Below, in pieces: positions 5,234-27,209 of a DNA stretch of 52,868 bases; position 1 is the first letter of the stretch; each line of letters opens with the position of its first letter. The DNA is from a virus. Lineage: Duplodnaviria > Caudoviricetes. Made by a program: the position numbers and the translations under genes. The stretch lies in the IMG/VR virus record IMGVR_UViG_3300009159_006334, positions 1 through 52,868 of that record; one strand, 5' to 3'. The notes under the pieces were generated by a model. That model saw only the letters and a list, made by a program, of their open reading frames with translations. It made no database searches and was not told where the DNA came from.

Positions 5234-5667
5234 AAACTTAGTTTTTGTCTTAATTGTTGAAATGTTTCAAATTCTGATTGATCTGTAGTATCAATACTTA
5301 CAAAATTTTCAGTAGGCATTCCGTAATCCTGTACGTGAAACTGCTCTCTACCTCTAATACTTGAAGTATGTACATACACCTCTCTAATATTGTCTCCCAT
5401 AGCTTCTTTAAAGGAATCTCGTTGATCTTTATAAGGTGATACCAATGATACGATAGCTACTTCTCCTTTATAATGAATGAATTTAGCTATGTTTTGTGCA
5501 AATTCTATATTCTTTCTTCTCCCTGCTTCTGAATAGTCTTTATTATCAAAAATCTCTCTAATATCATCGCCGTCTATAATAGTAGCTTTTCCTGCAAAGT
5601 GTGCTTCAAGCCACTTAGCTAATGTTGTTTTGCCTGCACCAGGCTGTCCTGTTATCCAAAATATCAT
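5230..5667 (-). CDS. cysC: Adenylyl-sulfate (APS) kinase
   Basis: WITGQPGAGKTT P-loop, DGDDIR, YSxxGRxxN, VSLVSPY. Confidence 0.88.
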   Translation of the reverse strand: MIFWITGQPGAGKTTLAKWLEAHFAGKATIIDGDDIREIFDNKDYSEAGRRKNIEFAQNIAKFIHYKGEVAIVSLVSPYKDQRDSFKEAMGDNIREVYVHTSSIRGREQFHVQDYGMPTENFVSIDTTDQSEFETFQQLRQKLSL

Positions 5668-6401
5668 ATTACCGATTTTATAAATCTTGTATTATCCAGA
5701 TGTTCATAACCGTAAAATAGCATTTCCTCTTCAAATAAATAGTAAACCTCGAGATACTGGCGTTGGTTGATCTTACTTAGAAAATCAACTTTCCTATGGT
5801 GTAATTTTGTTTTCTCATAATAAGTCTTATAGTAAGAATATAGTAAAATAAAATCAATATTAATTGCTTTATTTTTACTTTTTAGAAAATTAAAATTTAC
5901 TTCTTGGTTAAAAAGAGTACTATTTTCCGAATAAAAAGCAGTGTTATTTGCTTTTGATTTAGTTTCTCTAAAGTATTCTATATCTCTATCAAGGTCTTCT
6001 AGTTTAACTATTTTATACTCTCCAAGCTCACTATCGAAGTAATCCCTCATACTTGTCCATTTCATATCTCTTCCAACAGTGAGACAATTGTATTGAGATT
6101 TAAGATGTGAGTCGCGATCTCGTTGGCTAGTTGTAGTAGAATATTCTATATAAGCATCAATTCCCATCGTTTTATCAAAATCAAAGAAGTAGTATGACGA
6201 AAAGAATCTACTTATTGGATTTCTAACAAATAAAAACTTTTGTTTCTGTCTAAATTCCTCGCTAGTTAATGGTATGTTACAACTGCTATTAAAGCCTATT
6301 GAATACTTAGCAAATACATTATTAAACACTGAGTTTAATAAACTGTGTCCAGATTTTAAAAAAAATATATAGTATGATTCTTCTGTTTCGTATACAAGCA
6401 T
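5664..6401 (-). CDS. Sulfotransferase (Sulfotransfer_2-like)
   Basis: LKSGHS (5'-PSB-like) and FVRNPISRFFSSY (3'-PB) motifs; adjacent to cysC. Confidence 0.7.
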   Translation of the reverse strand: MLVYETEESYYIFFLKSGHSLLNSVFNNVFAKYSIGFNSSCNIPLTSEEFRQKQKFLFVRNPISRFFSSYYFFDFDKTMGIDAYIEYSTTTSQRDRDSHLKSQYNCLTVGRDMKWTSMRDYFDSELGEYKIVKLEDLDRDIEYFRETKSKANNTAFYSENSTLFNQEVNFNFLKSKNKAINIDFILLYSYYKTYYEKTKLHHRKVDFLSKINQRQYLEVYYLFEEEMLFYGYEHLDNTRFIKSVI

Positions 6402-6411
6402 TAGTTCTTTT

Positions 6412-6981
6412 TTATAATAATTTCTTTTTTATTTTAATTCCAATATTAGTTGCAATCATAAATCTCACATCTTGTGATTTATTCTCCTGTGTTCTGTGAA
6501 GATACCAGCCTGGCATAATAACTATCTCGTTTTCTTTTATTGGTATTCTTTTCCAACTCCAACTTTCGTCTTGAAATGGTATAAATTTGTAAGAGTCGTA
6601 GCTTGGATTTTTAACTTCTAATATTTCAGAATTTTTGGGTATTTTAAGATATGCACAAATAACAGCAACAACGTCTCCGTGATTATGCTCTAATTTACTT
6701 TCACCATAAGATGACGACCTTAACCAAGAATCTTCAATATAATATTCATGATTGTCTGGTAGTCCCCATTTTTCAGTTATAATTTTTTTGTAGAGAGGTT
6801 CAAGATAATCATAATAGCCTTTAAACATTTCAACTTTGTGTGGTTTAAAATTTGCACCATATCTACCATAAACATCGTCATATTCTAAATGGTATTGATA
6901 ACAAAATTCTTTTATTAAATCCCATTTAAAATCATACTCGAGCTTATAGATTTCGTTATCAAATAATCTTACTTGTTCCAT
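6412..6981 (-). CDS. Putative 2OG-Fe(II) oxygenase (TIGR02466-like)
   Basis: EHNH...YLKIP...MPGWYLHRT...R pattern. Confidence 0.7.
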   Translation of the reverse strand: MEQVRLFDNEIYKLEYDFKWDLIKEFCYQYHLEYDDVYGRYGANFKPHKVEMFKGYYDYLEPLYKKIITEKWGLPDNHEYYIEDSWLRSSSYGESKLEHNHGDVVAVICAYLKIPKNSEILEVKNPSYDSYKFIPFQDESWSWKRIPIKENEIVIMPGWYLHRTQENKSQDVRFMIATNIGIKIKKKLL

Positions 6982-7019
6982 TTTTCAATTTGGTTAATGT
7001 TATTACTTTTTTTCATATA

Positions 7020-8063
7020 TTATATACTATTTTTAATAAGAATACCTATATTTTGAAATGCATCTGACATTTTATAATATTCATATTCAAATTCGTTAGG
7101 GCTTTGATTATATAGATTAATTAATTCATTCGGTATATACGCATCTTTATTTAATATTTGATTAGCTCTTTCTTTATTGTATTTAATTTTATCTTTAATT
7201 AATTTATATAATTCATTATAATTTTTATCTTTTAATTTCTTTATGTTATCAATAATGCCATTTGCGCGATTATCAGTATCTGGATTAGAATCAAAATCAT
7301 AATCGAATATCTCATCATATAATTTAAATCCAATATGTTCTAATATTTTATTTTGGTTTGGTGAACCAAGACATATAAAACATTGTTCTAAAAGTATTGG
7401 TTTATATGTTTTTTCAGTTACTAACATATAATCATCATCTCTCGTTTCTGTAACAAGATTAAATAGAACATTTATTTTAAGAATATCTTTAACTTTTGCG
7501 GGATTATTAATATCAGAATAATCATCAATTTTCATATAACTTTGATTCCAATATTTAAAATCATAATTAAAAGCACAAGTGGGATCAGTTGCATTTAACC
7601 AAGAAATTTTGCCGTAATCCATTAATTCTTCTTTCTTCAATAAGTCAATCATTAAACATCTATGATATGTAATTCTTCTATTATAGGAAACAAATAATTT
7701 TTCAAAAATTTTATTTTCAAATGTTTGTTTAAGATCTACAAGTAAGTTGTGATTTGTAAAATGTAAAAGATATGTTGGCCATTGTATGTGTTTTATTTTT
7801 TCGTGTGTAAGATTTTTAGAATCAAACTCATTAAATCCACCATTTAAAATAAACAAATTAACATCAAATTTTGTCAATAAAACATATATCTCATTAACAT
7901 CATCTTTAATTTCATTAAAATTAAGGTAGATGCCAAACTCCATTGGATTAAAAAATAAAACATTTTTTGGTTGTTTTTTAATAGCTTCAATTATTAATCT
8001 TAAAGAATTGTCTTTATGGAGATTAACCTCATCAACAAATATTATATGTTGTCTTTTATCCAT
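7020..8063 (-). CDS. Putative glycosyltransferase-like protein (GT10-like TEK motif); paralogue of the 21293-23812 repeat unit
   Basis: FVSYNRR...HR, LVTET...VTEKTYKPI, LYDEIFDYDFD. Confidence 0.5.
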   Translation of the reverse strand: MDKRQHIIFVDEVNLHKDNSLRLIIEAIKKQPKNVLFFNPMEFGIYLNFNEIKDDVNEIYVLLTKFDVNLFILNGGFNEFDSKNLTHEKIKHIQWPTYLLHFTNHNLLVDLKQTFENKIFEKLFVSYNRRITYHRCLMIDLLKKEELMDYGKISWLNATDPTCAFNYDFKYWNQSYMKIDDYSDINNPAKVKDILKINVLFNLVTETRDDDYMLVTEKTYKPILLEQCFICLGSPNQNKILEHIGFKLYDEIFDYDFDSNPDTDNRANGIIDNIKKLKDKNYNELYKLIKDKIKYNKERANQILNKDAYIPNELINLYNQSPNEFEYEYYKMSDAFQNIGILIKNSI

Positions 8064-8084
8064 TTTATAATATTTTAACTAGTA

Positions 8085-8852
8085 TTAAAATCTTTTTATA
8101 ATATATTTATATAATTCTTCGCTAATTAGTTTATACCCTTCTTTATTTGGGTGTTGTGAAGCTCTAGATTTATATTTTTCATTTTGATATTCCCATATGT
8201 TATTCTTATTGTTCTCATTTAAAAAATCCTTAAATGTTTGTTTATTAAATCCCCAATAATATGCTTTATCAATTATATGAGTAATATCATCTTTTTTATG
8301 TAAATCAATCAACATAGATTCAAAAGAATCACACATAATATACTTCATACCGTAAAACTCAAAAATTTTTTGAATAAAGATAATATAATTTTGATTAACA
8401 ATATTATAATAATTTTGATTAAAAATTTCAGTTATATATAATTGTTTAAACTTAATGAAAAATTTATCAAAATCGATATGTTCGCTTTGATATGAATTTA
8501 AAAATTTATGTGGCTCATCAATTAAGTGCCTGACTGACCATGTAACCCATTCACCACTTGGTAGAAATGGTACCGTGTCTCTTAAAGAAGAACTCCACAT
8601 TATTACTGAGAGGTCTTCTTTTTTGATAACACCATTTTTTAAATCATTTATTACATTATTAAAAATTTTTAAATTTGATAACCCATTAACTCCGTTATTA
8701 ACATGAGGAATATTCATTTTTTTTGAGAGAAAATTAACCCAACTATTATCATTTTGAAATTTAATTTTGTCTTTTTTCGGCAAATTATCTTCAATTTTCC
8801 TATCACATCCTACTCCGGCGGTCCAACTATCCCCGTATGCGTGTAGCATCAT
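8085..8852 (-). CDS. SGNH/GDSL hydrolase-like protein
   Basis: GDSWTAG block I, NGVNGLSN, C-terminal HPNKEGY. Confidence 0.75.
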   Translation of the reverse strand: MMLHAYGDSWTAGVGCDRKIEDNLPKKDKIKFQNDNSWVNFLSKKMNIPHVNNGVNGLSNLKIFNNVINDLKNGVIKKEDLSVIMWSSSLRDTVPFLPSGEWVTWSVRHLIDEPHKFLNSYQSEHIDFDKFFIKFKQLYITEIFNQNYYNIVNQNYIIFIQKIFEFYGMKYIMCDSFESMLIDLHKKDDITHIIDKAYYWGFNKQTFKDFLNENNKNNIWEYQNEKYKSRASQHPNKEGYKLISEELYKYIIKRF

Positions 8853-8854
8853 AT

Positions 8855-9529
8855 TTATTTTTTTAATCGATTAATATTATTACCTTTTACAAATCGTTGT
8901 GAATAGAAGTTTTTAAAGTCTGAATGTAATACTGTTATATCTCGTGTTGTGTAGACTTGTAGCCAAACTCTTCTCGGCTTATTAGATTTATTTTCTTCTG
9001 AGTAGTGTAGGGTTTCTCCATCCCAGACAATAATATCTCCTGCTTTTGAGTAAGCAGTGTTATACTCTTTTGTTTTTTTATTTAGTAACCTAATAGGACC
9101 ATTTTTATCTGTAAAGTCATCTAATACCCAACAACAAGTTATGCTTCGGTACCAGCCTTCAGAAGCCATTCGCGGATTAGGACCATATCCATTATCGCTA
9201 TGAGGATCGAAAGTAAAATTATCGTTAGGTAACTTAACTACTATTTGATCGTTGAATAAATAAATTTCATCAGTATCTAACAGCTCACTTGCTATGTCAT
9301 ACATTAAATCTGAGGTGTAAAATTCAAACAGCTTATCATACTCGGTACTAGCGACATCTAAGCCTGTCCAATACTTCATAAGACCAAACGGACGAGGCTG
9401 TCCTATTAAATTTTCATTAATAGTTCTATTTCTATAATCTAAAGTAATCTCTCTTGCTGTATCTAAAAATTCAAGAGTTAATTTATTGCTAAAAGTAATA
9501 TATCCATTTTCTTCAAATTCTATATTCAT
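8855..9529 (-). CDS. Phytanoyl-CoA dioxygenase (PhyH)-family 2OG-Fe(II) oxygenase
   Basis: PHSD, WVLDDFTDKNGP, AGDIIVW...LHYSEENKSNKPRR. Confidence 0.82.
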   Translation of the reverse strand: MNIEFEENGYITFSNKLTLEFLDTAREITLDYRNRTINENLIGQPRPFGLMKYWTGLDVASTEYDKLFEFYTSDLMYDIASELLDTDEIYLFNDQIVVKLPNDNFTFDPHSDNGYGPNPRMASEGWYRSITCCWVLDDFTDKNGPIRLLNKKTKEYNTAYSKAGDIIVWDGETLHYSEENKSNKPRRVWLQVYTTRDITVLHSDFKNFYSQRFVKGNNINRLKK

Positions 9530-9531
9530 AA

Positions 9532-10104
9532 TTAACTTTTTTTAATCTTGCATACCCAGGAAACATCAGCAAATGCTTCAAAGTTATATGGTATTAATGA
9601 ATTTGCAATTGAACACTTCTCTATATCCTTATCTTGAATCTCTAACCAATCCCATTTCTTATTATAAAACTCTTGTCCGAATATTGCAAAATTAGGGACG
9701 TAGTCGTGTGCCATTATAACATCTCCTTCTTTTAAGAATGCTGAGAAGGTATTAAATTCTTTTGGTTTATCTCCGCCATCGCATAGTAATAGGACTTTAC
9801 CGTGGTTCTGTATTAAACTCTGTAAGTCGTATTCAAAAATATTCATATGGTTTATATTAATACCTTTACTAATTAAGTTATTATGAGTACTATGAGGATC
9901 TTCGATATCAAACGACATCAGCTTATAGCTTAAACTGTGTTCAGCTTTAAAATCATATAAAAATTCAACAAAACCACCTACTGCGGTTCCAATTTCTACA
10001 ATTAAGTCGAAAGGTTCTTCTAATAGAAATTTCTCGAAGACATTCCAAGCATTAAATTGCTGCTGTGCTTTGTATTTGCCTTTATATGTAGAATACATGT
10101 CCAT
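9532..10104 (-). CDS. Class I SAM-dependent methyltransferase (CmcI/Methyltransf_24-like)
   Basis: IVEIGTAVGG, LCDGG, LKEGDVIMAHDY. Confidence 0.7.
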   Translation of the reverse strand: MDMYSTYKGKYKAQQQFNAWNVFEKFLLEEPFDLIVEIGTAVGGFVEFLYDFKAEHSLSYKLMSFDIEDPHSTHNNLISKGININHMNIFEYDLQSLIQNHGKVLLLCDGGDKPKEFNTFSAFLKEGDVIMAHDYVPNFAIFGQEFYNKKWDWLEIQDKDIEKCSIANSLIPYNFEAFADVSWVCKIKKS

Positions 10105-10144
10105 AAAATGTAATATAACCTTTTTAGCAATGTTATCAAACTGT

Positions 10145-11188
10145 TTATATGAGTTTTTTAATACCTATGTTAATTTTAATACTATTTTTAGAGCTATTAT
10201 ACTGTTCTAGGATAGTATCCCACTTCTCTTCTGAGATTACTGAGGGCTGCTTTCTATATTCTTCGGCAAATAGGCTCCATGTTGAGGTATTTGACTTTAT
10301 TAAGAATTTACAAAAACTTAAAGCAAATAAATCAACCATATTACATATTGTAAGCTCTTTCTCATCAGTATCGATAATATCTCCAGATAGAGTAAGGAGT
10401 TCTTTAATCTCACCTATTATAGTTTCTTTAAGGATAATATTCTTACCGTATTTTTCGACGTAATATGAAATTAAGTGAAAAGGTAGATCTGTACTAATGT
10501 AGAACTTTTGATTCGGATTTATTTTTAAAAAATTATCAATAATATTAAAATAAACCTCATCATTGATGTAAGGATACCCTTCGTGATTGTATATGTAAAT
10601 TTTACTCCTAAAATCAAGGTAGGATTCTTTTATGTTAGACGATTCAATGTCTATTTTATCTTTGTCGTATGCAACGCCAGAACCTCTTCTAAGATGTATA
10701 CCTATTGCATCCTTAGTAATATCTTTTAAATAGTCTTCTACTAAGTAGTTTTTTATTTTTATATAAGATAACGGACGTATTTTATCTTGATACTGAGTCT
10801 GTAGTGTGTTTAGAAAAGTAGAAGTAAGAAGTTCGCCGCTCTCACTAAATTTACCAAAATCAAAGGTGTACGTTAAGTGATTAAAGTCTGCTAATTGCTT
10901 CGCAGAGTACATATGATGGCAAAAGTCTTCTCGTACTTCCTTAATGTCGGGAGTATTAATAACTTTTTGATCTATGTTTTGTACTAGGGATGTGTAAGGT
11001 AGAAAAATAAAGTCATTGCTAACTTCAGGCCATTCTGTTTGATCCATCAATATACGATAACCTCTTCCTAATGTTTCTCTTAAATAATATGCTATCTCCC
11101 AATTCGCAACCCTATTACCAAAACTTGTATCTAAATTATGCCACATGAATCGTTTGTTGATCCACATTAGCGATTTTTCAGAATCCAT
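10145..11188 (-). CDS. Fucosyltransferase-superfamily glycosyltransferase (GT11/NodZ/O-FucT-like)
   Basis: FGNR, GIHLRRG, FYISTD, DLFALSFC...STWS motifs. Confidence 0.7.
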   Translation of the reverse strand: MDSEKSLMWINKRFMWHNLDTSFGNRVANWEIAYYLRETLGRGYRILMDQTEWPEVSNDFIFLPYTSLVQNIDQKVINTPDIKEVREDFCHHMYSAKQLADFNHLTYTFDFGKFSESGELLTSTFLNTLQTQYQDKIRPLSYIKIKNYLVEDYLKDITKDAIGIHLRRGSGVAYDKDKIDIESSNIKESYLDFRSKIYIYNHEGYPYINDEVYFNIIDNFLKINPNQKFYISTDLPFHLISYYVEKYGKNIILKETIIGEIKELLTLSGDIIDTDEKELTICNMVDLFALSFCKFLIKSNTSTWSLFAEEYRKQPSVISEEKWDTILEQYNSSKNSIKINIGIKKLI

Positions 11189-11343
11189 TAGCTCTGTGAT
11201 GCCTTTAATAGCTTAATAAATTTGCTTATAATACTGTTTGATTGTACCTTATGCTTATCACTTAAGGGTTTCATTGCTCTTTCCAAGGTAGTTGATTGAT
11301 CTACTTTTTTGTATACTATCTTATTCACTGTAGTCTCTGACAT
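11188..11343 (-). CDS. Small 51-aa hypothetical protein
   Basis: Manual translation MSETTVNKIVYKKVDQSTTLERAMKPLSDKHKVQSNSIISKFIKLLKASQS; fills the gap exactly, TAATG overlap with next gene. Confidence 0.7.
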   Translation of the reverse strand: MSETTVNKIVYKKVDQSTTLERAMKPLSDKHKVQSNSIISKFIKLLKASQS

Positions 11344-11351
11344 AGTAATTA

Positions 11352-13214: not shown

Positions 13215-13230
13215 AAAATTACCAGTTTTA

Positions 13231-13281: not shown

Positions 13282-14355
13282 CTATACGATCTTCTTTGTT
13301 ATATCTACTACGTCGTGTAAATTGTGATATACCTGCGGCTCAATCCATATCTTCTTAGCTTCTTCAATAAAATCACTGTATTCAGGATGTATTGGATCCC
13401 AGACTTTAACGAATTCGTACTGATTACAGTTAAATGTTCCCCAGTTATTGATTTTAATGAATAAAACAGATGCTTTTTTACCGAATATTCCCCTAATTAA
13501 GTCAGCAAACATCCTCATTTCCTTATAATTAGCTTGTTGAACTACAAAAGACGTTCTTACCTCTTCCAAACTCGGAATTGTACTGATAAATTTAAGGTTC
13601 TTGATTAAATTATCCCAATTACCGTTTAATCTAACCTTATTCTCGTAAGTTTCTCTAGTTGCAGCGTCAATACTGATCTCACACGTCTTTACATACTTGT
13701 GAATGTTCGGCATAGTGTTCCACATCTTCTTAGTCCACATAGATGCATTTGTATGTAAGTGAATACTCTTAAGTTTTGGGTACTCTTCTTTATTAAAAGT
13801 CTGTAAAAAGGTCCTAAATGTGTTTGAGACAAAAGGATCTCCGGATGCAGTGAAGTATAATGTCTTAGCATCCTTTGAAAACAGTCTTTTCATCTCTGTC
13901 ATGGTATCTTCTATCTCTATTAAATTCTCTGGAGTAGCTTTATAGGTCTCTTTTCTGCAAGAAGGACATTTATAATTACAGCTCTTGTCGAAATTATGTT
14001 CTATTTTCTCAGGACCCACTTCCATATAAGGGTCTTGATTAATAAACTTCTCTTTAAACTTATTTGGTAGGTCATCTTTGTGGTAAATTGGGCCTTTAGG
14101 ATCTACCTCGTTAAATTTCAATAGATATGATAAATATGGGCATTGAGTAGCATCACAATGTCTGTATGACCCATCCATTACCGATCTTCTTGATTCTAAA
14201 GAGTCTTCTGAGTTCCAGATCTCACTTAAAGGTTGATTTTCAGGGTTTCTTTTAATTAACCACTCAGGAATACAGAGAAAGTACTGATTTTCTTCATGTA
14301 TATGTAGAAATCTAAAAGGTGCTGTACACACATAATTTTTTAAATCAACTTTCAT
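13282..14355 (-). CDS. Radical SAM protein with N-terminal SPASM/Twitch-like Cys domain
   Basis: CNYKCPSC, SGDPF, HTNA, ISIDA; N-term CTAPF...LC...IWNS...C...CP. Confidence 0.88.
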   Translation of the reverse strand: MKVDLKNYVCTAPFRFLHIHEENQYFLCIPEWLIKRNPENQPLSEIWNSEDSLESRRSVMDGSYRHCDATQCPYLSYLLKFNEVDPKGPIYHKDDLPNKFKEKFINQDPYMEVGPEKIEHNFDKSCNYKCPSCRKETYKATPENLIEIEDTMTEMKRLFSKDAKTLYFTASGDPFVSNTFRTFLQTFNKEEYPKLKSIHLHTNASMWTKKMWNTMPNIHKYVKTCEISIDAATRETYENKVRLNGNWDNLIKNLKFISTIPSLEEVRTSFVVQQANYKEMRMFADLIRGIFGKKASVLFIKINNWGTFNCNQYEFVKVWDPIHPEYSDFIEEAKKIWIEPQVYHNLHDVVDITKKIV

Positions 14356-15429
14356 CTATATAATCTCCTTTTTTACTTCTATGAATTCATACATGTTATG
14401 AAATACTTGTGTATCTCTCCAAACCTTATTAAATTCCTTCTTAAAAAGATCGTGTTCAGGGTGATTAACATCCCACACTTTCTTAAGCTTAAATTCTCCT
14501 TCAGTAAAAGTATCCCAGTTATTTATTTTACCAAAAAACACATGAACCTTTTTGCCAAAAATTGATTTCATTAGCTTTAAAAATGTTTCCATTTCGGCAT
14601 AATTACTATCCTGTACTACAAATGATGTTTTAATGTACTTTAGTACAGGTATCTTTGATATAAAATGCAAGTTGCCAATTAAATTATCCCAATTACCTCC
14701 TAAACGTGTCTTATTTTCATAAGTCTCTCTAGTACCCGCATCTATGCTTATTTCACAGCTCTTAACATAAGGCCATACATTCTTCATACTATCCCACATC
14801 TTCTCATTCCACATTGATGCATTAGTATGTAAGTGTATGTTCTTTAATTTTGGATATTTCTTAGGGTCGAACGTTCGTAAAAAATCTCTAAAGCCAACTG
14901 ATACGAATGGATCACCACTGCCAGTAATAAACATTGTAGATAGGTACTTTGCGAATTTAGTCTCTATTTCTAAAAGAGTAGCTTTTACTCTTTCAATACC
15001 TTTAGAGTTTTCAACAATTAAATCAACTCGACATGACGGACATTTGTAATTACAAGTTCTATCAAATGCAAATTGAATAACAGAAGGTCCAAGATTCATC
15101 TCACCAGTCTCAGCATTATAGTTATCAGTTATGTAGCTTGGTGTATTCTTTCTTTCTACTATTGGATTTACATTATTTAACTTTTTATCGTTTAATAACT
15201 CGGATAAAAACGGACATTGCTTTTTGTCGCAGTACTTATAGGAGCCATCGTGTATTGATTTTCTTATTTCTTTTGCTTCTTCAGAGTTCCAGACTTCATC
15301 TAACGGCTTTTCCATATCTGGAGCAATATTGTTAGGTAGCCACGTAGGGCAGCACATAAAGATAGCTTGATTATGAATTTCAATATTTACAAACGGAGCT
15401 GTACATATGTAATTTTTTAAGTCTCTCAT
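14356..15429 (-). CDS. Radical SAM protein with N-terminal SPASM/Twitch-like Cys domain (close paralogue of neighbour)
   Basis: CNYKCPSC, GSGDPF; N-term CTAPF...CCPTWL. Confidence 0.88.
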   Translation of the reverse strand: MRDLKNYICTAPFVNIEIHNQAIFMCCPTWLPNNIAPDMEKPLDEVWNSEEAKEIRKSIHDGSYKYCDKKQCPFLSELLNDKKLNNVNPIVERKNTPSYITDNYNAETGEMNLGPSVIQFAFDRTCNYKCPSCRVDLIVENSKGIERVKATLLEIETKFAKYLSTMFITGSGDPFVSVGFRDFLRTFDPKKYPKLKNIHLHTNASMWNEKMWDSMKNVWPYVKSCEISIDAGTRETYENKTRLGGNWDNLIGNLHFISKIPVLKYIKTSFVVQDSNYAEMETFLKLMKSIFGKKVHVFFGKINNWDTFTEGEFKLKKVWDVNHPEHDLFKKEFNKVWRDTQVFHNMYEFIEVKKEII

Positions 15430-16008
15430 TTATATCAATTTATTTTTTTTAAGTACATACCCATTTGGTGCTATATTTGATTTAAATGTATCTAATTGCC
15501 TAAAAATACTCTCTTCACTACTTTTTATTTTCATTTTCTTTTTATTTACAATAGATAACTCATAATCGTAAGGAAATTTTACCTTTCTACTATTAAAATA
15601 GTCAAGTAACTTAGTAGCACCTTGGTGGGATACAAAGTATGAATAACAACTACCCTCTACTCCTAGGTTGTAAAGGTCAAATTCCTTAAAATTTACTTTT
15701 GTCCAATCGAAGCTACTAACTATATCAATATCGTCTTCTATTATTAATATATCGCTTTTGGATTCAGCTGATAACTTAATCAATGTTAGGTGAGATAAAA
15801 ACGTTGCCATAGTTGCTCTTTGGCTAAAGTCCCACTCGCTTAAATAACTATCAACAAAATACCTTTTTTCCAATTCTACTGTAATATCGCCTGGTTCTAT
15901 TGCGTCAAAGAATTGAAACTCTAGTCCAATCCTATCCTCTATAGATTTCATCCATATTTTTCTACCTTCGTCTGCTTTTAGTGAAATACAGTATGTTTTA
16001 AATTCCAT
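15430..16008 (-). CDS. Glycosyltransferase family 25
   Basis: CISL...R...FFDAI, SHL, ILIIEDD, SYFVSHQGATKLL. Confidence 0.8.
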   Translation of the reverse strand: MEFKTYCISLKADEGRKIWMKSIEDRIGLEFQFFDAIEPGDITVELEKRYFVDSYLSEWDFSQRATMATFLSHLTLIKLSAESKSDILIIEDDIDIVSSFDWTKVNFKEFDLYNLGVEGSCYSYFVSHQGATKLLDYFNSRKVKFPYDYELSIVNKKKMKIKSSEESIFRQLDTFKSNIAPNGYVLKKNKLI

Positions 16009-16653
16009 CTAAATATACTTATTACCTTTCACTTGAAAGCTATTGTGAATATACAATGCATCGTTATTACTGCTGTATAGCTTGGTGTATCCATACCCGT
16101 ATAACAAATTATCAAAATCTTCGTACGAAGTACCTGATTCATAAAAAACGTCGAATGCGCAAATTTCTGACCAAATGCAGTAGGGTCTGTAGGTACCTAA
16201 CTTACTTAGTATTTTATACTCTGCGCCTTCAGCATCGATGTGTATAAAATTTGGTGTTATATTGTTTTCGTTACAGAATTTATCTAAAATTATACTTTTA
16301 ACAAGGTAGGGTTCACCGTATGTTAGATCAAAGTATTTAGTTGGAATTGGTTTTAGTGTACTGCTAGATATATTCCAATCTTTTTGACCATTAAATGTAT
16401 CAGATGGATAGAATATTATTTCACCTTCAATGTCTGATAATGCATAATGAAAATAATTTATTCCATGATCAATTGCTGTTATGGTATTGCTTTCTTTAAA
16501 TTTCTTATTACATTCAAATGCATAAAATTCTGCATTTGGTAAATGATTCTTAAAGTCGATTGTATCATACAAATCAGAACACCCTATGTTAAAAAAATTT
16601 ATTTTCTTATCATAGAAATTATCTACTAAAAAATCTACACTTAAATCGCTCAT
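16009..16653 (-). CDS. FkbM-family methyltransferase
   Basis: YAFE, ALSD, LDKFC, IHIDAEGAEYKIL. Confidence 0.82.
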   Translation of the reverse strand: MSDLSVDFLVDNFYDKKINFFNIGCSDLYDTIDFKNHLPNAEFYAFECNKKFKESNTITAIDHGINYFHYALSDIEGEIIFYPSDTFNGQKDWNISSSTLKPIPTKYFDLTYGEPYLVKSIILDKFCNENNITPNFIHIDAEGAEYKILSKLGTYRPYCIWSEICAFDVFYESGTSYEDFDNLLYGYGYTKLYSSNNDALYIHNSFQVKGNKYI

Positions 16654-18407: not shown

Positions 18408-19148
18408 ATGGAAGACAAAAAGACTTTAATATCTAGCGGATGCAGCTTTACCGCACATAGCCACAACTGGCCTTATATTTTAGAAGAATCTTACGGCTTT
18501 AACCTAATAAACTGCGCAGAAGCGTCACAGGGTAATGGATTGATATCTAGAAAGTTAATTCACAAATTAAATAAGCTAGTCGAGTATCCGAATCCTAAAA
18601 ATTTAATAGTAGGTGTGATGTGGTCTGCTATAGATAGAGGTGAGCGCTATATTGAACCTGGAGATATGTACGTAGGTCCTCCTTTCTTAAATCATAACCC
18701 AACTCGAGTGTCAGAAGATTCTCATTGGAGTGGATGGAGAATGATGTCTCCTCAGTGGGATAAGTCAGAAGACTGTATTCAATATTATAAAATATTCAAT
18801 CATCCAATATCTTCCATAGTCCATACTATTGAGCACATATTAAGAGTTCAATGGTATTTAGAAAAAATGAAAATAAATTACTTCATGTCAACTATGCAGC
18901 ACATATTTTATGATGATTTAATTAATAATGCTGAAGTTCGCTATTTGTACGATATGATTGACCATACGAAGTTTTTGCCTGTGAAAGGATGTCACGACTG
19001 GGTAAAGGATAACTACAAGGCTGAGGGTTTCTTGCCTCCTGATCCAAAATGGGATGGTAGGATTGATATGCATCCAACTAGGTTTGGGCATGAAAGATTT
19101 ACAGAAGAGATAATAGTACCACATTTAAAAGAAAGAAATTTAATTTAA
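18408..19148 (+). CDS. SGNH-like protein (GCS variant)
   Basis: SGCSFT, SQGN, VGVMWS, C-terminal DMHPT...GH. Confidence 0.65.
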   Translation: MEDKKTLISSGCSFTAHSHNWPYILEESYGFNLINCAEASQGNGLISRKLIHKLNKLVEYPNPKNLIVGVMWSAIDRGERYIEPGDMYVGPPFLNHNPTRVSEDSHWSGWRMMSPQWDKSEDCIQYYKIFNHPISSIVHTIEHILRVQWYLEKMKINYFMSTMQHIFYDDLINNAEVRYLYDMIDHTKFLPVKGCHDWVKDNYKAEGFLPPDPKWDGRIDMHPTRFGHERFTEEIIVPHLKERNLI

Positions 19149-19160
19149 CAAATTCTAGTT

Positions 19161-20132: not shown

Positions 20133-20133
20133 T

Positions 20134-21308: not shown

Positions 21309-23812
21309 AGTTTGTTTACGATGATTGGGATGAAGAAAACAATGTCCCTAGACCTAATAGGTTAAAAACTTATCAACAAGAGGGTACCAACTCGGCATGG
21401 TTAGTTTCTTCTGATCCTATGAAGATTCTTAACCAGGTTACTATTGAAAATTACAAATTAGAAGAGGTAATTAAGAATCCAACTCAAGTGTACTTCTATC
21501 ACGTTTGGTTTAGAGGAAATTTTGAATCTAGTTTTTTTAGCAAAGGAAAGTTACCAGTAGACAATGAAATAATTCGAATAATTAATCAAAATCCAAATTT
21601 ACATTTAATTTTAATGAACGAGCAGGAGTATGAAACTAGAACTGCAGTAAAACAGTTGGATGAGATTGTAAAAAGGTTAAGGTTAAAGCCACATAGGGTA
21701 TGGTTTGTAAACAATAATGAAAAATTAGAGGAGTATAAGCTAGAATCGAGTGCTGGTATAAATGTGCATACTTCTCGCTGCTTAATTTCGCACGTTAAAA
21801 GAGATGAAAATAATGCACTAAGCTTTAAGACTGATAAAGATATTAGTTCTTTCTTTTTATGTCATAATAGATCTCCTAGACCTCAAAGATATGCATTACT
21901 TTGTCTATTAAAAAAATACGGTATATTAGAAAGTGTGGATTGGTCTTTAGTTAATGGTTGGGGTAATGATAAGGTTAATTTTGAGTTAAATTGTTTGCAG
22001 CTTTTTACTCGAGAACAATTTCAAGATTTATCTTCAGAAGCTCAATATTTCGAGTCTATTGAAATGAAGAAAAGTAAATACGAAACTAATCATTTTGAAT
22101 TTGATAATCGTAATAATCAAAGGATATTTTTTGAACATGCTACCTATGAAAATTCATACTTTAACATTGTAACGGAAACTATCTACCATGGAGAAGATAT
22201 ACACATAACAGAAAAATCTTTTAAGCCGTTTTACTTCTTGCAGTTTCCATTAATATTAGCATCGTACCAACATGGCTATTATTTTAGAAAAGCTTATCCC
22301 GAATATGATTTTTTTGATGATGTGATAAATCATGATTATGATAATATAGAAGATGATAAAGAAAGGCTTCTTGCATTTGTTAATGAAGTCAAGAGAGTTA
22401 ACAGCAATAAAGAGTTTTTCATCGAGTTTTATAAGAATAATGAAGAAAGGTTTATTAAAAATCACGAAGTGTGTAAAGCTTACAATTATACACGGGATCA
22501 TGACTTTTTTAAAAAGCTAAGCGAACTACCTGTTACAGGAAATAAGGCATTAAATTTAGTATATGATAATTGGAATGAATATACTCAATATCCGTCAGAG
22601 CCTAATTGTAGGGAGGTTTATACAAATCACTTTATGATTGTTCCTGATATGTCTGTGTTTGCTCTAGGGTTTGGATCAGATCTTATTGTAAGATATCTGC
22701 TAGAAGATATGCCAAAGTACCCCGATAGAAAATTTTACTACTTTATAACATTAATACCTAATTTATTTTTAAGCAAAATTAAAGATAATAAGCTACCGTT
22801 GCCAGAGGAAGTTCTTGATTACTTATTAAAGTACTCAAACTTTAATGTTGTTATAATAAATGAACAAGAATTTGAAACTTTTGAAGCTGTCGAGGCAATT
22901 CATCAATGGTCTAAAGCACTTAACATAAATCAAAAGCAATTGTGGATTTCAAATAATAACATTAAACTAAATGATTATAAAGAAATCTTAAACAGCGATA
23001 TTAATTTTTACACTACATCGTGGGTAAAAAATCACGTTGGTGGGGTAATGCACAACAAAATAGGCGATATACAATATAAACCTAACAAAGAAGGTGCTTT
23101 ATTTCTTTGTCATAATAGAAGGCCTAGGCCTCATAGACACGGATTACTTTGTCTATTGAAAAAATACGGTATATTGGATAATGTTGATTGGTCTTTAGTT
23201 AATGGTTGGGAGGTACGAAGTGAAGATTTGGGTTTTTATTATAATGTTTTTAATGAAGAAGATATTAATTCGTTGTCTGAAGAAATAAACTATTTTCAGA
23301 GTATTGAGCAAAAGAAGAGTAGGTACGAAGAAGAATATACTTGGTTTGATGATAGGGAACATACTAATGGTGTCAATTGGAATGAGACGTACGTAACAGC
23401 TACCTATGAAAATTCTTATTTTAATATAAGTACTGAGACTGAATTTCGTACAGAGGTTATACATATTAGTGAAAAATCCTTTAAAGCATTTTATGCTATG
23501 CAGTTTCCTTTGGTTTTGGCTTCACCGAATCACATTGCTGAGATGAAAAAACATTTTGATTATGATTGGTTTGATGATGTTATAGATCATAGTTATGACT
23601 CGGTTCTTAGTCACAGAGATAGATTATATAAATTTGTCGAAGAGGTTAAGAGAATTAATGATAATAAAGAATTTTTTATAGAATTTTACAAAAATAACAA
23701 ACAGAGATTTATCGATAATCATGAGAAATCCTTAAAATGGTCATCAAATCCAGCCGATAAGAATTTTCTTTTAGGATTATGTGATTTACCTCTTATACCT
23801 TGGAACAAATAA
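21293..23812 (+). CDS. Tandem-duplicated putative glycosyltransferase-like protein (two ~420-aa units)
   Basis: Two copies of FLCHNRxPRP.R..LLCLLKKYGIL..VDWSLVNGW, ATYENSYFNI.TET, HI(T/S)EKSFK, FDDVI.H.YD; ATG at 21293 preferred to the track start at 21269. Confidence 0.6.
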   Translation: MGNILKFVYDDWDEENNVPRPNRLKTYQQEGTNSAWLVSSDPMKILNQVTIENYKLEEVIKNPTQVYFYHVWFRGNFESSFFSKGKLPVDNEIIRIINQNPNLHLILMNEQEYETRTAVKQLDEIVKRLRLKPHRVWFVNNNEKLEEYKLESSAGINVHTSRCLISHVKRDENNALSFKTDKDISSFFLCHNRSPRPQRYALLCLLKKYGILESVDWSLVNGWGNDKVNFELNCLQLFTREQFQDLSSEAQYFESIEMKKSKYETNHFEFDNRNNQRIFFEHATYENSYFNIVTETIYHGEDIHITEKSFKPFYFLQFPLILASYQHGYYFRKAYPEYDFFDDVINHDYDNIEDDKERLLAFVNEVKRVNSNKEFFIEFYKNNEERFIKNHEVCKAYNYTRDHDFFKKLSELPVTGNKALNLVYDNWNEYTQYPSEPNCREVYTNHFMIVPDMSVFALGFGSDLIVRYLLEDMPKYPDRKFYYFITLIPNLFLSKIKDNKLPLPEEVLDYLLKYSNFNVVIINEQEFETFEAVEAIHQWSKALNINQKQLWISNNNIKLNDYKEILNSDINFYTTSWVKNHVGGVMHNKIGDIQYKPNKEGALFLCHNRRPRPHRHGLLCLLKKYGILDNVDWSLVNGWEVRSEDLGFYYNVFNEEDINSLSEEINYFQSIEQKKSRYEEEYTWFDDREHTNGVNWNETYVTATYENSYFNISTETEFRTEVIHISEKSFKAFYAMQFPLVLASPNHIAEMKKHFDYDWFDDVIDHSYDSVLSHRDRLYKFVEEVKRINDNKEFFIEFYKNNKQRFIDNHEKSLKWSSNPADKNFLLGLCDLPLIPWNK

Positions 23813-23821
23813 AATAATACA

Positions 23822-24754
23822 ATGAAAAAAATACTAATAACAGGATGTAGTGGATTAGTCGGTACACATTTAGTTAAAAAATGTATTAGTTTAGGCTACG
23901 ACGTAGTTGGTGTTGATTTATACTTAAGTAAACATCTTCCAGCAAGCGGATGGTCTTTTATTGAAGCGGATTTGACTAAGAATAACATAATTGAAACTAT
24001 TTTCCTATGTAATAATTTTGATGTAGTATTTAATACCTTTGGAATTAAGGGTTCACCAATGAGGGCTAAAAATAATCCTGTCGATTTTTTATATCCATCC
24101 TTTAAAATTAACACTGAGATTATAAATCAATGTGCGAAAAAGGATATATGGTTAGTATTTGTTAGTTCGGTGGGTGTTTATGCTCCAGCTGAGAGGTTTG
24201 TAGAGGATACGGTGTGGAAGACTTTACCTTCAGAAGCGGATTGGTATCCTGCTTGGAGTAAGAGAACTGGAGAAATTTTATTGGAGGCATATAAGGTACA
24301 ATACGGTTATGATAGGTGGTCAATTATAAGGCCGGCAAACATATTTGGTAAGTATGATGATTTTAGTGGTTTTGGTACTGTCATAGCATCTACAATTAAA
24401 AAAGTTGCTGAAGCGAAGGATGAGATTGAATGTTGGGGAGATGGTTCTCCAATTAGAGACTTTGTCTATGCTGGTGATGTTGCTGATGCTATTATAAAAG
24501 TGTATCAAAAGCAAATAAACGATACTGTTAATTTTGGTTCTGGTATTGAAATTTCAATTAAGGAGATAGTTGATAGCATAGTTAGTATTAGCGGTAAAGA
24601 TTTAAGTATAAAATGGGACGCGTCTAAGCCAAACGGAGACTTAAGAAGGTTAATGGATGTGTCTAAGCAAACAGCTTATAGTATTCTACCTACAACAACA
24701 TTTAAAGAGAGATTAAAAGAAGTATATGAATTCTACACCGATTCCATTAAGTAG
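23822..24754 (+). CDS. NAD-dependent epimerase/reductase (GDP-fucose synthase-like SDR)
   Basis: ITGCSGLVG, AWSKR, RPANIFG, WGDGSPIRDFVY. Confidence 0.85.
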   Translation: MKKILITGCSGLVGTHLVKKCISLGYDVVGVDLYLSKHLPASGWSFIEADLTKNNIIETIFLCNNFDVVFNTFGIKGSPMRAKNNPVDFLYPSFKINTEIINQCAKKDIWLVFVSSVGVYAPAERFVEDTVWKTLPSEADWYPAWSKRTGEILLEAYKVQYGYDRWSIIRPANIFGKYDDFSGFGTVIASTIKKVAEAKDEIECWGDGSPIRDFVYAGDVADAIIKVYQKQINDTVNFGSGIEISIKEIVDSIVSISGKDLSIKWDASKPNGDLRRLMDVSKQTAYSILPTTTFKERLKEVYEFYTDSIK

Positions 24755-25424
24755 CTTTCTAGAAGAAGGTGCTTATGTTGGTAATTTATATGATTTTATT
24801 GATGCAAATGAAATGACTCAAGTAGAGTCTAAAATTAAAGGTATTTGTAGTTATGTTGAATCAGATAGAGAGTCTATTTTAAAATGTAGATACGATTACG
24901 CACCTGAGCTTCAAAGCTATGAGCACTCAATACCTTTAAATCAAATTCTAGAAAGAGATTTATTTATAAAAGAGAATGATTTACGTACAGTACAAAAGTG
25001 GTACGAATTTTCTATGAGTAATGAATACCATCAGTACTTTTATAGCTTATCTAAGAAAATAGTAAATACTCTCTATCCAGATACCGTCATAGATGATAGC
25101 GATAGAATGGGAGATTTTACTCTATACGAAGATGATCATTTTATAAGTGATCATAAGGATGGTTACAGTAACGGTAGGTTATGTGTTTTAATTATGTATT
25201 TAAGTAGTGAGGCGGATTATAACAATGGCGGCGGTGAATTAATTATAACTACAAATTCAAGTACTCAACATACAGTAAAGCCTCTATTAGGTACTTTCAG
25301 TATTATGGATTTTTCAAAAAGTGATTTGATTCATGAAGTCAAAGCGGTAAAGAATGGATTTAAAAGATACTCTTTTATTAATTTTTTTAAAGTTAAAAAT
25401 GTAGAGAATAAAATAACAATATGA
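24726..25424 (+). CDS. 2OG-Fe(II) oxygenase (prolyl-4-hydroxylase-like)
   Basis: HKD, LIMYL, GGEL, HEVKAV, RYS. Confidence 0.8.
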   Translation: MNSTPIPLSSFLEEGAYVGNLYDFIDANEMTQVESKIKGICSYVESDRESILKCRYDYAPELQSYEHSIPLNQILERDLFIKENDLRTVQKWYEFSMSNEYHQYFYSLSKKIVNTLYPDTVIDDSDRMGDFTLYEDDHFISDHKDGYSNGRLCVLIMYLSSEADYNNGGGELIITTNSSTQHTVKPLLGTFSIMDFSKSDLIHEVKAVKNGFKRYSFINFFKVKNVENKITI

Positions 25425-26395
25425 TAAATAAAAATTCCAAAATATTAATTACTGGTGGTTCGGGATTAGTGGGACAAAATTTAACCGAAAGATTACTTAG
25501 AGAGGGGTACACTAATCTAAGAGTTAACTTACATAAAAGAGGTGTTAGAACCGTTCATGATGGTGTTCATTACACGTATCATGATCTACAGGCGTATGAA
25601 GGATGTTTAACTGCAACAAAGGAAGTTGATATCGTATTTCATGCTGCTGCCTCTACATCTAATGCGGTTGATACTGTTGTTGACCCCTTAGCACATGTCA
25701 CACCAAATGTAGCAATGAATAACTTCCTAATTGATGCTAGTTGGAGAAATAAAATACAGCACTATATCTTTATTTCATCTAATACAGTTTATCCTCCAAA
25801 GGGTGATGAACCTGTTATTGAAACCGATTTCTTATTCGATGAGCCTTACCCTGTTTATTTTCCTGTGGGGTGGATGAAAAGGTATGCTGAAGTTCAGTGT
25901 GAGTTATACGGTAAGTATTTACCTGTTAAAATGAAATGTACTGTTGTTAGACCAGCTAACTTATTTGGCCCTCATGATAAATACGACTTTAATAAATGTC
26001 ATGTAACTCCAGCAACTATTCGCAAAGTAGCAGATAAAATGAATCCGATTCCTGTTTGGGGGGATGGAAGTGAGTTAAGAGATCTTTTATATATTGAAGA
26101 TTTTATAGAAGCATTACAAGTTATTATGGAAAATGAAGTTGAAATGTTTGAAGTATATAATGTTGGCTCAAATAAGGTATATTCAGTATTAGAAGTATTG
26201 GAGATAATGAAGGTAATTGCAAATTACAATGCTCCAACTGAATTTATTAGTGGTAAACCTTCTATGATACCGACACGTAAAATAAATTCAAATAAAATTA
26301 AAGAAAAACTAGGTTGGGAGGCAACAACAAGTCTTGAATCTGGTTTAAAAAACGCTTACAATTGGTATAAAGAAAATGAAAACGAATTCAAATAA
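25421..26395 (+). CDS. GDP-L-fucose synthase-like NDP-sugar epimerase/reductase
   Basis: ITGGSGLVG, GWMKR, RPANLFGPHDKYD, HV, VWGDGSELRDLLY. Confidence 0.85.
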   Translation: MINKNSKILITGGSGLVGQNLTERLLREGYTNLRVNLHKRGVRTVHDGVHYTYHDLQAYEGCLTATKEVDIVFHAAASTSNAVDTVVDPLAHVTPNVAMNNFLIDASWRNKIQHYIFISSNTVYPPKGDEPVIETDFLFDEPYPVYFPVGWMKRYAEVQCELYGKYLPVKMKCTVVRPANLFGPHDKYDFNKCHVTPATIRKVADKMNPIPVWGDGSELRDLLYIEDFIEALQVIMENEVEMFEVYNVGSNKVYSVLEVLEIMKVIANYNAPTEFISGKPSMIPTRKINSNKIKEKLGWEATTSLESGLKNAYNWYKENENEFK

Positions 26396-27209
26396 AATAA
26401 CTAAAGGAATTGTATTTGGTGGTTGTTCTTTTACATGGGGACAGGGCCTTTACTACTATTCTAATTTAGAGACTTTAAAAGAACCTCTACCTGATTGCTA
26501 TGATAGTAAGTTAGTTACTGATGCTCATAAGCGATATGGTGCAACATTAAGATATCCAAGACTTGTGGCAAATCATTTTAATACTTTTGAAGTATGTATG
26601 TTACAAAACGGTGGATCCGAAGAAACTACTTTTGATTATTTGAGAAAAGTATTTGGCTTAGAAGAAAACTGTGATCATTTATTTACTGAATCATTATCTT
26701 TTAGTGAGCTTGAATATATTATAATACAAACTTCACAGCCTAATAGAAATTCTTTTACTTATACTTTAGATGGTAGTCAGCATTACTACAAAATAGATTC
26801 GCCAGAAACAAAAGACCTCTTTTACAAATGGCTAAGTCAAGAAAAAATAGAGTTTGAAGATTGGTACTCGAGTCATGTTAAAAGTGTATTTAATCAGTTA
26901 AAAGAAAACATGTTTTTTTACGAATCTAAAGGAATAAAGACATTATTTCTTAATTGGGAAGAAGATTATTCGTCTTTAATCAAAGAAGATACTTACATGT
27001 CAGAAAGATTTATATCTTTAGAGTATAGAGGTAAGAATTACGAATGTATTCGCCATTTAATGGATGAAAATAAACACTTAACCATTAATAGCGATTACGA
27101 ACATTTTGAAATACCTCCTACCGATCATCACCCTTCAAAAGAATGTCATGAAGTTATGGCTACAAACATTATAAAAAAAATAAACAACAATGGAAAAAAA
27201 CTTATATAA
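26376..27209 (+). CDS. SGNH-like protein (GCS variant)
   Basis: GGCSFTWGQG, NGGS, DHHPSKECH. Confidence 0.65.
   Translation: MKTNSNKITKGIVFGGCSFTWGQGLYYYSNLETLKEPLPDCYDSKLVTDAHKRYGATLRYPRLVANHFNTFEVCMLQNGGSEETTFDYLRKVFGLEENCDHLFTESLSFSELEYIIIQTSQPNRNSFTYTLDGSQHYYKIDSPETKDLFYKWLSQEKIEFEDWYSSHVKSVFNQLKENMFFYESKGIKTLFLNWEEDYSSLIKEDTYMSERFISLEYRGKNYECIRHLMDENKHLTINSDYEHFEIPPTDHHPSKECHEVMATNIIKKINNNGKKLI

Follow-up and report, generated by a model that had tools for sequence, protein, structure and literature searches.

Unrelated enzymes of a T4-like phage island share a short basic and hydrophobic C-terminal tail that clusters around a ligase-Hint gene and may serve as a docking tag

Why should enzymes of quite different folds, encoded on both strands of one phage gene island, finish in nearly the same four residues? 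The question is raised by IMG/VR record IMGVR_UViG_3300009159_006334, a 52.9-kb fragment of an uncultured T4-like myovirus (the window, hereafter, is this whole stretch of 52,868 nucleotides), in which a large island sits between structural genes. An earlier note on this DNA had described a KKLI-like tail on island enzymes and had read it as a terminal signal that recruits tailoring enzymes to a common scaffold or substrate, or to a protease. Our analysis indicated that the tail is a protein-level, selected terminal signal common to unrelated folds, so this part of the earlier reading stood; the reading as a whole was partly supported, with docking to a scaffold and an enzyme assembly line as its putative parts. 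The tailed genes cluster around the gene of a ligase-Hint protein, and we consider it an evenly balanced proposition that the tail is a recognition or docking handle of client enzymes, read by a component of the ligase-Hint module, which brings the tailoring enzymes to one protein or peptide substrate.

All eleven C-termini quoted in the earlier note were found at the ends of the open reading frames (ORFs) to which they had been assigned, and structural proteins, epimerases, E1 subunits and the carbamoyltransferase were without the tail, as had been claimed. The tails are as follows:

5667..5678, minus strand: tail KSVI of ORF 5664-6401, no Pfam match
6415..6426, minus strand: tail KKLL of the 2OG-Fe(II) oxygenase ORF 6412-6981, whose orthologue in the related locus L001 ends in KKLV
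7023..7034, minus strand: weak tail KNSI of ORF 7020-8063, which belongs to the family of ORF 21269-23812
10148..10159, minus strand: tail KKLI of ORF 10145-11188, with an orthologue also ending in KKLI; among large genes this ORF comes first downstream of the ligase-Hint gene
13285..13296, minus strand: tail KKIV of the radical SAM ORF 13282-14355
14359..14370, minus strand: tail KEII of the radical SAM ORF 14356-15429, a disordered extension in the AlphaFold2 model
15433..15444, minus strand: tail NKLI of the GT25 ORF 15430-16008
16012..16023, minus strand: weak tail NKYI of the FkbM methyltransferase ORF 16009-16653
19134..19145, plus strand: tail RNLI of the DUF6071 ORF 18408-19148
25410..25421, plus strand: weak tail KITI of the 2OG-Fe(II) oxygenase ORF 24726-25424
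27195..27206, plus strand: tail KKLI of ORF 26376-27209, no Pfam match

The statistics for the window were calculated on 54 ORFs of at least 80 amino acids, leaving out five nested antisense ORFs and the partial ORF 3-455. The 22 ORFs lying wholly within 5664-27209 were taken as island ORFs, and the other 32 as outside. The strict motif, [KR]-x-[LIV]-[LIV]-stop, ended 7 of the 22 island ORFs, with 0.12 expected from the internal frequency of the same 4-mer in these proteins (0.0056 per position; binomial P 2.9e-11), and it ended 0 of the 32 ORFs outside. Looser definitions gave the same picture, with [LIV][LIV]-stop in 8/22 island ORFs (1.03 expected) and a final Ile in 9/22 (1.75 expected). 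All 8 clear tails had I, L or V as the last residue, and one of the 8 (KSVI) had Ser or Thr at position -3, counting the last residue as -1. The earlier note had cautioned that an AT-rich genome makes K, I and L common; as an explanation of the tails this was not borne out, because the strict motif was so far above its expectation.

The strict motif had been defined after the window data were seen, and it held in independent loci. The first locus set consisted of 80 viral loci fetched with the island carbamoyltransferase, and these gave 1615 ORFs of at least 90 amino acids, of which 1176 had distinct C-termini. The strict motif was present in 219 of the 1176 (18.6%), which was 31 times its internal frequency, and 434 (37%) ended in Ile. 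Enrichment in this set was 3.7-fold for Lys at -4, 3.7-fold for Leu at -2 and 4.4-fold for Ile at -1, with Lys, Thr, Ser and Asn enriched at -3; before the hydrophobic pair, Lys was enriched 1.9- to 3.7-fold throughout -4 to -7. Val and Phe were not enriched at the end, and Asp, Glu, Gly, Ala and Pro were depleted; the tails are Lys-rich, and Asp or Glu stood at the last position at only 0.2-0.4 times background. When this set was pooled with the second locus set (below), 917 of 1930 distinct ORFs had a two-hydrophobic end. Among these 917 tails the last residue was I in 66%, L in 21%, F in 8% and V in 4% (Ile and Leu together 87%), Leu stood at -2 in 62% and Lys at -4 in 48%, and K, S, T or N occupied -3 in 79% (K 24%, S 21%, T 20%, N 14%). 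The commonest ends were KSLI, KTLI, KTLL, KTII, NKLI and KKLI. The frequency of the motif was thus far above the compositional background both in the window and in the related loci.

The decisive control was made within genomes, on three related contigs with lengths of 115 kb, 119 kb and 245 kb, the longest being used over its first 160 kb. Outside their islands the strict motif was found in just 4 of 312 ORFs and the two-hydrophobic end in 23 of 312, and in their island pieces the counts were 7/59 and 16/59. The second glycan cluster of the closest relative (GT2, GT11, GT1, GDP-mannose dehydratase, DegT) had a K-x-L-I-type end in 0 of 16 ORFs and a two-hydrophobic end in 3 of 16. Composition, gene packing and termination context are alike in such tail-poor non-island regions, so they are not the cause of the tail, and amino-acid composition was rejected as a cause on the window count and the 31-fold excess as well.

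The codons also pointed to the protein. Synonymous codons for Leu, Ser and Thr were used freely in the tails: Leu at -2 was encoded by all six codons at near internal proportions (CTN in 30/155, compared with 23% internally, P 0.34), and Ser at -3 by AGT as well as TCN codons. The nucleotide profile showed no conservation beyond the four codons of the tail. Frequent 'ATA TAA' had prompted the idea of a DNA element, but a repeated DNA element, a promoter (TATAAT- or TATAAATA-like) or a recombination junction was not accepted as the main cause, given the variation in synonymous codons and the lack of any conservation outside the four codons. Sorted by distance to the next same-strand gene, the strict motif was found in 110/511 ORFs with overlap, 32/201 at 0-5 nt, 20/77 at 6-15 nt, 11/74 at 16-40 nt and 14/56 at 41-100 nt, so that each same-strand class up to 100 nt lay within 15-26%. 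An overlap with the ribosome-binding or start region of the next gene was rejected too, since the motif is spacing-independent and missing from equally packed non-island genes. Two nucleotide effects were real, a bias towards A before the stop and the loss of one tail where an insertion had its breakpoint; both are considered further below.

The tail was distributed by protein family. Among 63 families with at least 3 distinct members, and with the tail scored as a two-hydrophobic end, it was present in at least 90% of members for 18 families, in at least half for 31, and in 10% or fewer for 22. The tail-bearing families included 2OG-Fe(II) oxygenases, SET-domain proteins, a tryptophan-halogenase-like flavoenzyme, a radical SAM family, DUF6071 and SGNH-like hydrolases, and many had no Pfam match at all (the scan covered 39 of 60 listed family representatives, and window members were scanned separately). 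Nucleotide-sugar enzymes, RmlC, DegT, UDP-glucose dehydrogenase, E1 subunits and carbamoyltransferase were tail-less, as were APS-kinase-like, cytidylyltransferase-like and structural proteins. An intermediate case was the family of ORF 7020-8063, with a two-hydrophobic end in 29 of 72 distinct members. A family mate of this ORF, ORF 21269-23812 (plus strand, 847 amino acids), has no Pfam or NCBIfam match, and its translation shows an internal tandem duplication in which the two halves share long near-identical stretches.

The radical SAM ORF 14356-15429 was followed through its homologues. In the best 120 of 1267 homologues from a collection of 5.8 billion proteins, the last four positions (-4 to -1) were filled by K in 107, T or S in 105, L in 101 and I in 106, and the linker before the tail varied in length and sequence. 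Conservation of the tail among orthologues was seen in this near-invariant end, and the orthologues listed above for the 2OG-Fe(II) oxygenase ORF 6412-6981 and for ORF 10145-11188 kept it too. Neither outcome that the earlier note had named as refuting its reading, a motif no commoner than background or a tail that orthologues do not share, was observed. The two-hydrophobic end fell with identity to this ORF: among 150 representatives at 50% clustering, counting only those matched to near both protein ends, it was present in 3/3 (at least 50% identity), then 4/7, 7/12 and 6/34, and in 4/66 below 35%. Only four relatives were found in 185,579 species genomes (a Bdellovibrio metagenome-assembled genome (MAG), an Eisenbacteria MAG, Jeongeupia and a gammaproteobacterial MAG; 30-39% identity). 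The tail was missing from all four, and the genes next to them were likewise without tails. In an AT-rich cellular locus (L108, GC 0.35) the two-hydrophobic end was found in 0 of 17 ORFs. These counts bore out the expectation that phage homologues keep the tail and that cellular or distant ones lack it.

The tail also appeared as an addition to the fold. The last conserved helix is exactly where the Bdellovibrio protein ends, and the phage proteins extend 6-8 residues beyond it. The AlphaFold2 model of ORF 14356-15429 had a mean pLDDT of 88.8, with the last 5 residues below 50 and without secondary structure, which is consistent with a disordered end.

The features at the centre of the tailed genes in the window are:

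11352-13214, minus strand: the ligase-Hint protein (the 'Hint protein' of the earlier note), in which a predicted ATP-grasp ligase (residues 1-287) is joined to a BIL/Hint domain and then to a second Hint domain that ends in HNK
11188-11343, minus strand: a small partner ORF of 51 amino acids directly downstream of the ligase-Hint gene, without the tail motif

The ligase-Hint protein was the constant, tail-less centre of the tailed gene block. In the 56 loci of the first set with a ligase-Hint gene, the genes at +1 to +5 downstream had the two-hydrophobic tail in 76-93%, compared with about 30% far upstream. For the 24 loci without a called ligase-Hint ORF, tblastn found the gene at the locus edge in four, and 5 tail-rich contigs of the remaining 20 were checked, in all 5 of which the gene lay just beyond the fetched flank. 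The second locus set comprised 80 loci fetched with the ligase-Hint protein, out of 324 confirmed IMG/VR stretches, and here the +1 gene was tailed in 11/11, 26/26 and 17/17 distinct cases, down to 24% ligase identity. The most divergent loci showed a compact block with sharp edges, in which nearly all members were tailed and the flanking genes were not. Its order was 2OG oxygenase, halogenase, two unknown families, a small Cys-rich protein, ligase-Hint, SGNH-like, 2OG, an unknown family and radical SAM. The earlier note had linked the tails to the Hint protein, and the neighbourhood part of this link was supported, with adjoining genes tailed in 76-100%.

Two observations concern other members of these neighbourhoods. 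A small zinc-ribbon-like Cys-rich family (87-105 amino acids, CxxC...CxxCGCP...CP), itself tailed, usually adjoins the ligase-Hint gene (L043, L036, L046, L048, L179). Directly after the tailed cassette in L190 (13585-20797) and L176 (13623-18746) lie giant proteins of 1642-1707 amino acids and their paralogues, which end in ...SGHCGWRT/G and may be structural substrates of the cassette.

The structure of the ligase-Hint protein was predicted with a pLDDT of 87.6 (AlphaFold2). Residues 1-287 resembled circularly permuted ATP-grasp enzymes, with matches to glutathione synthetase-like 5oeu (Z 9.7), YgiC 7uka (9.4) and GspS 2io7 (8.7) at rmsd 4.3-5.3 over 202-221 residues, and more distantly to ArgX with LysW (3vpb, Z 6.3) and TTLL11 (9hq4, Z 6.1); Z scores of 8-10 are only moderately above the stated noise level of the structure-comparison tool. 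On this model the region is predicted to be a permuted ATP-grasp ligase of the kind that acts on peptide carboxyl ends. Residues 290-465 had the BIL/Hint fold (2lwy, Z 18.9, rmsd 1.6 over 138 aligned residues; 6tmm, Z 18.7), without an N-terminal nucleophile and with a conserved junction H468-N469/C470, and the second Hint domain matched Pfam Intein_splicing/PT-HINT. In an alignment of 38 ligase-Hint sequences D9, E22, N24, T25, R108, D112, D118, Y121, P168, K173, R233 and N469 were invariant, and H468 and C470 were present in at least 90%. Most relatives carry a Cys/Trp-rich peptide of 35-45 residues after the His-Asn junction, which Asn cyclisation could release; in the window type the second complete Hint domain, ending in HNK, takes the place of this peptide. 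The relatives of the small partner (28-53 amino acids, same position) end in K-H-L/S or A-N-S, and the 51-amino-acid ORF may be a carrier or substrate of the ligase.

These results suggest the following model. A flexible, Lys-rich extension ending in [K/N]-[S/T/K/N]-[L/I]-[I/L]-COOH would be appended past the last folded element of unrelated enzymes and would label them as clients of a conserved phage cassette centred on the tail-less ligase-Hint protein. The free hydrophobic C-terminus and the preceding lysines would form the handle, and its reader would be a component of the cassette, for which the ligase-Hint protein and its small partner are the candidates. Oxygenases, radical SAM enzymes, methyltransferases, halogenases, hydrolases and glycosyltransferases would in this way all be gathered at a single shared substrate, either a protein or a peptide. 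That the tail is bound by something, what binds it and that recruitment is its purpose are the steps that we infer.

Several points weigh against this model. A clear tail is found on only 7-8 of the 22 island ORFs in the window, and it is missing from three genes that follow closely downstream of the ligase-Hint gene (9532-10104, 8855-9529 and 8085-8852). For one of these the loss could be traced: in L001 its 96%-identical orthologue (18671-19363) ends in ...DGTSKTI and abuts a 2OG oxygenase gene, and in the window the last codons of 8855-9529 (minus strand) were replaced (...NRLKK) exactly where the extra genes 8085-8852 and 7020-8063 were inserted, so cassette insertion breakpoints fall at gene 3' ends and are able to remove a tail. 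The window tails mostly have K, E or N at -3, where S or T is common elsewhere. The consensus of the tail did not clearly co-vary with the type of ligase-Hint protein; the only shift was a weak one in Thr at -3 (32% and 15%), and co-variation was set aside as evidence for that reason. The strict motif was rarer before gaps of more than 100 nt (16/155) and at convergent gene ends (2/43, with [LIV][LIV] ends in 16/43), and the last Ile codon was ATA in 69-74% of cases compared with 39% internally, which is a nucleotide-level component caused partly by ATGA overlaps. Sampling also has to be considered: ORFs were called mechanically, from the first ATG and with at least 90 amino acids; the loci came from related phages, so protein counts are not independent events and family-level counts are safer; and the neighbourhood loci had been chosen through the carbamoyltransferase or the ligase-Hint protein itself and not by an unbiased scan. 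Finally, no PDZ, S41, Clp or Lon domain was matched in 39 window ORFs (E up to 0.001) or in 86 of the 101 non-island ORFs of a 94%-related phage, G001 (E up to 1e-5). Complex prediction for ligase residues 1-290 with the radical SAM ORF 14356-15429 gave 0.04, 0.33 and 0.25 against a mark of 0.32, without controls, and speaks neither for nor against binding.

Other explanations start from the same evidence. The tail could be a ligation substrate, with the ATP-grasp ligase activating its C-terminal carboxylate and joining it to an amine, such as the N-terminal Cys of the Hint-released Cys/Trp-rich peptide or a lysine of a virion protein, and the cassette would then be a phage protein-tagging system. 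The motif is indeed locked to the extreme C-terminus with Ile or Leu last in 87% of tails, every cassette centre is a ligase with a fold like that of peptide-carboxyl enzymes and with invariant catalytic-type residues, and the H-N-C junction is near-invariant, with the Cys-rich peptide behind it in most relatives. However, known protein-tail ATP-grasp ligases (RimK, LysX, TTL) act on acidic tails, whereas the tails here are basic and hydrophobic; the small partner, whose end is conserved in its own right, would suit the ligase more obviously as a substrate, and the window ligase-Hint protein has no Cys-rich peptide, so we think ligation unlikely. The specific version in which the tails are acceptor ends, with the Ile/Leu carboxylate joined to a virion protein or to the Cys/Trp-rich peptide through its N-terminal cysteine, strikes us as quite improbable; if true, the cohort of tailoring enzymes would be covalently tethered to one carrier, by a conjugation that would resemble ubiquitin tagging or pupylation, be chemically of a new type and occur in viruses only. 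A protease, which the earlier note had listed among the candidate readers, would make the tail a C-terminal degron for a host AAA+ protease of the ClpXP type, or for another protease that recognizes a hydrophobic C-terminus, and would give the enzymes a short, timed life. The order of basic residues and then a hydrophobic last residue on a disordered end does resemble the MuA ClpX signal RRKKAI, as given in Table 1 of PMC8138137. But a degron leaves unexplained the confinement of the tail around the ligase-Hint gene, the tail-less second glycan cluster and the near-exceptionless retention in more than 18 unrelated families; neither Clp nor Lon was detected in the scanned phage ORFs, where a protease of the host would in any case go unseen, and we regard a degron as improbable.

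The tail could instead be a localisation signal read outside the cassette, its polybasic stretch and hydrophobic pair directing enzymes to the inner membrane, the site of lipid-linked glycan synthesis, or loading them into or onto the assembling virion in the manner of encapsulin and microcompartment cargo peptides. This would suit the Lys enrichment at -4 to -7, before the hydrophobic pair, and an island rich in sugar-pathway genes that lies between tail-sheath and baseplate/fibre genes, and operon-wide cargo tags are a known principle. Yet a disordered end of five residues with one hydrophobic pair would make a short membrane anchor, the glycosyltransferases in the second glycan cluster of the related phage have no tail, no likeness to encapsulin or microcompartment peptides was seen, and most of the tailed families (2OG oxygenases, SET, halogenase, radical SAM) belong to types whose usual targets are proteins or peptides; we think localisation unlikely. 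KKXX endoplasmic reticulum-retrieval and PTS1-like signals had also come up and were dropped because the contig belongs to a tailed phage (tail sheath, baseplate). A nucleotide-level by-product, arising from AT-rich composition, start-region overlap, termination context or a recombination junction, would account for the ATA excess in the final codon, for the many genes that abut or overlap the next start and for the tail lost by 8855-9529 exactly at a cassette insertion. It would not account for the 31-fold excess over the same proteins' interior, the independence of next-gene spacing, the scarcity of the motif in equally AT-rich and equally packed non-island ORFs, the absence of two-hydrophobic ends at L108, the free synonymous codons or the lack of conservation past four codons; it is highly improbable and largely excluded. 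Recruitment of client enzymes by the ligase-Hint module is thus the reading that we put forward, at the strength given above.

The rest of the window gives the setting of this system. The structural genes on either side of the island are:

1393-3510: tail sheath gene
41811-43583: baseplate/fibre gene

By its tail sheath protein, the nearest cultured relative is Flavobacterium phage immuto (48% identity), which has no comparable island at the corresponding place, and a search for cultured relatives among 50,697 phage records gave no useful match to the radical SAM gene or to one tail-bearing 2OG oxygenase. Pfam matches in the island covered sugar-nucleotide enzymes, carbamoyltransferase, E1-type thiamine pyrophosphate subunits, 2OG-Fe(II) oxygenases, radical SAM enzymes, methyltransferases, GDSL/DUF6071 hydrolases and glycosyltransferases. 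Among the enzyme names of the earlier note, 2OG oxygenase, radical SAM and GT25 agreed with Pfam, which also found FkbM; 'sulfotransferase' (5664-6401), 'GT11-like' (10145-11188) and the second 'SGNH-like' (26376-27209) had no Pfam match and are unconfirmed. Further along the window, the adjacent minus-strand ORFs 29294-29962 and 29981-30595 correspond to two parts of NF033640, an N-terminal-twitch radical SAM family, the former to its C-terminal half (profile positions 185-393) and the latter to its N-terminal half (1-168), and this pair looks like a split or disrupted copy amid four intact paralogues:

28143-29312: intact NF033640 paralogue
30588-31808: intact NF033640 paralogue
31801-33372: intact NF033640 paralogue
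33932-35320: intact NF033640 paralogue

The 94%-related phage G001 (L084-L087) encodes GroEL/GroES, Hsp20 and Fe-S assembly proteins (IscA-like, NifU, ferredoxin), and also a 7-deazaguanine pathway (GTP cyclohydrolase I, QueC, QueD-like, QueF-like) and a second, tail-less glycan cluster.

Literature searches, in which supplementary files were not covered, found neither the tail nor the ligase-Hint cassette described. Devices of this general kind, terminal peptides for addressing or docking, are known; what appeared in no literature search is this tail sequence, its use across dozens of enzyme families encoded in a phage cassette and its connection with a ligase-Hint protein. If the tail is such a label, a simple sequence rule (a Lys-rich flexible end finishing in Leu/Ile-Ile/Leu) would give the full client list of an unstudied phage pathway built around the ligase-Hint protein, of which at least 324 IMG/VR stretches encode a relative. 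Dozens of protein families of unknown function would be marked as co-workers on one substrate, and this would be a rare case of pathway-wide enzyme recruitment through a four-residue C-terminal motif in a bacterial virus. The tail reader could also reveal the purpose of the large islands in T4-like aquatic phages, which are so far described (PMC7029224) only as host-recognition or O-antigen-related.

Among known systems, the islands of pelagimyophages and cyanomyophages termed the 'host recognition cluster' or hyperplastic island are similar in gene content, being large and variable, placed in the T4-like structural region and carrying glycosyltransferases and radical SAM cassettes (PMC7029224). 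Unlike the present island, however, that cluster is described without a terminal tail in view: 'C-terminal' occurs 0 times in the main text of the paper, and no ligase-Hint protein appears in its passages on the cluster. The MuA ClpX signal is similar, by eye, in its basic residues, hydrophobic last residue and exposed C-terminus (PMC8138137, Table 1), but protease substrates are scattered, whereas the tail is confined to one cassette and kept by dozens of enzyme families.

Ligands of class I PDZ domains resemble the tails in other respects. The class I PDZ-binding motif is x-[S/T]-x-hydrophobic-COOH, and like the tail it is a flexible peptide locked to the C-terminus with a hydrophobic last residue; Ser or Thr stands at -3 in 41% of tails (KTLI, KSLI). 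In contrast to PDZ ligands, Lys and Asn are as common as Ser and Thr at -3, only KSVI fits in the window, Leu at -2 is strongly preferred in the tails and not required by PDZ, and no PDZ domain was matched in the scanned phage ORFs. ATP-grasp ligases (glutathione synthetase, GspS/YgiC, RimK-S6, LysX/ArgX-LysW, TTL-tubulin) share the fold predicted at the cassette centre, and a small partner with a conserved end adjoins it, but the known tails of the protein ligases are acidic and the tails here are rich in Lys and depleted of Asp and Glu.

A parallel in logic is found with operon-wide cargo or docking peptides, which include encapsulin cargo-loading peptides, microcompartment encapsulation peptides, the C-terminal docking motifs of nonribosomal peptide and polyketide synthases (NRPS/PKS) and the leader-RRE recognition of RiPPs, peptides that are made by the ribosome and modified after translation. 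As in these systems, one short terminal peptide is found on unrelated, co-encoded enzymes and would gather them, but the tail is unrelated to them in sequence, its constraint extends over only 4-5 residues, and no docking domain turned up. Encapsulin and microcompartment cargo need a longer conserved peptide or an amphipathic helix together with a shell protein, whereas the tail is a disordered end of 4-5 residues, and no shell family was among the Pfam matches of the window, family-representative and G001 scans. Compared with RiPP pathways the logic would be reversed, with the tag carried by the enzymes and the part of a large 'leader' taken by the ligase-Hint protein.

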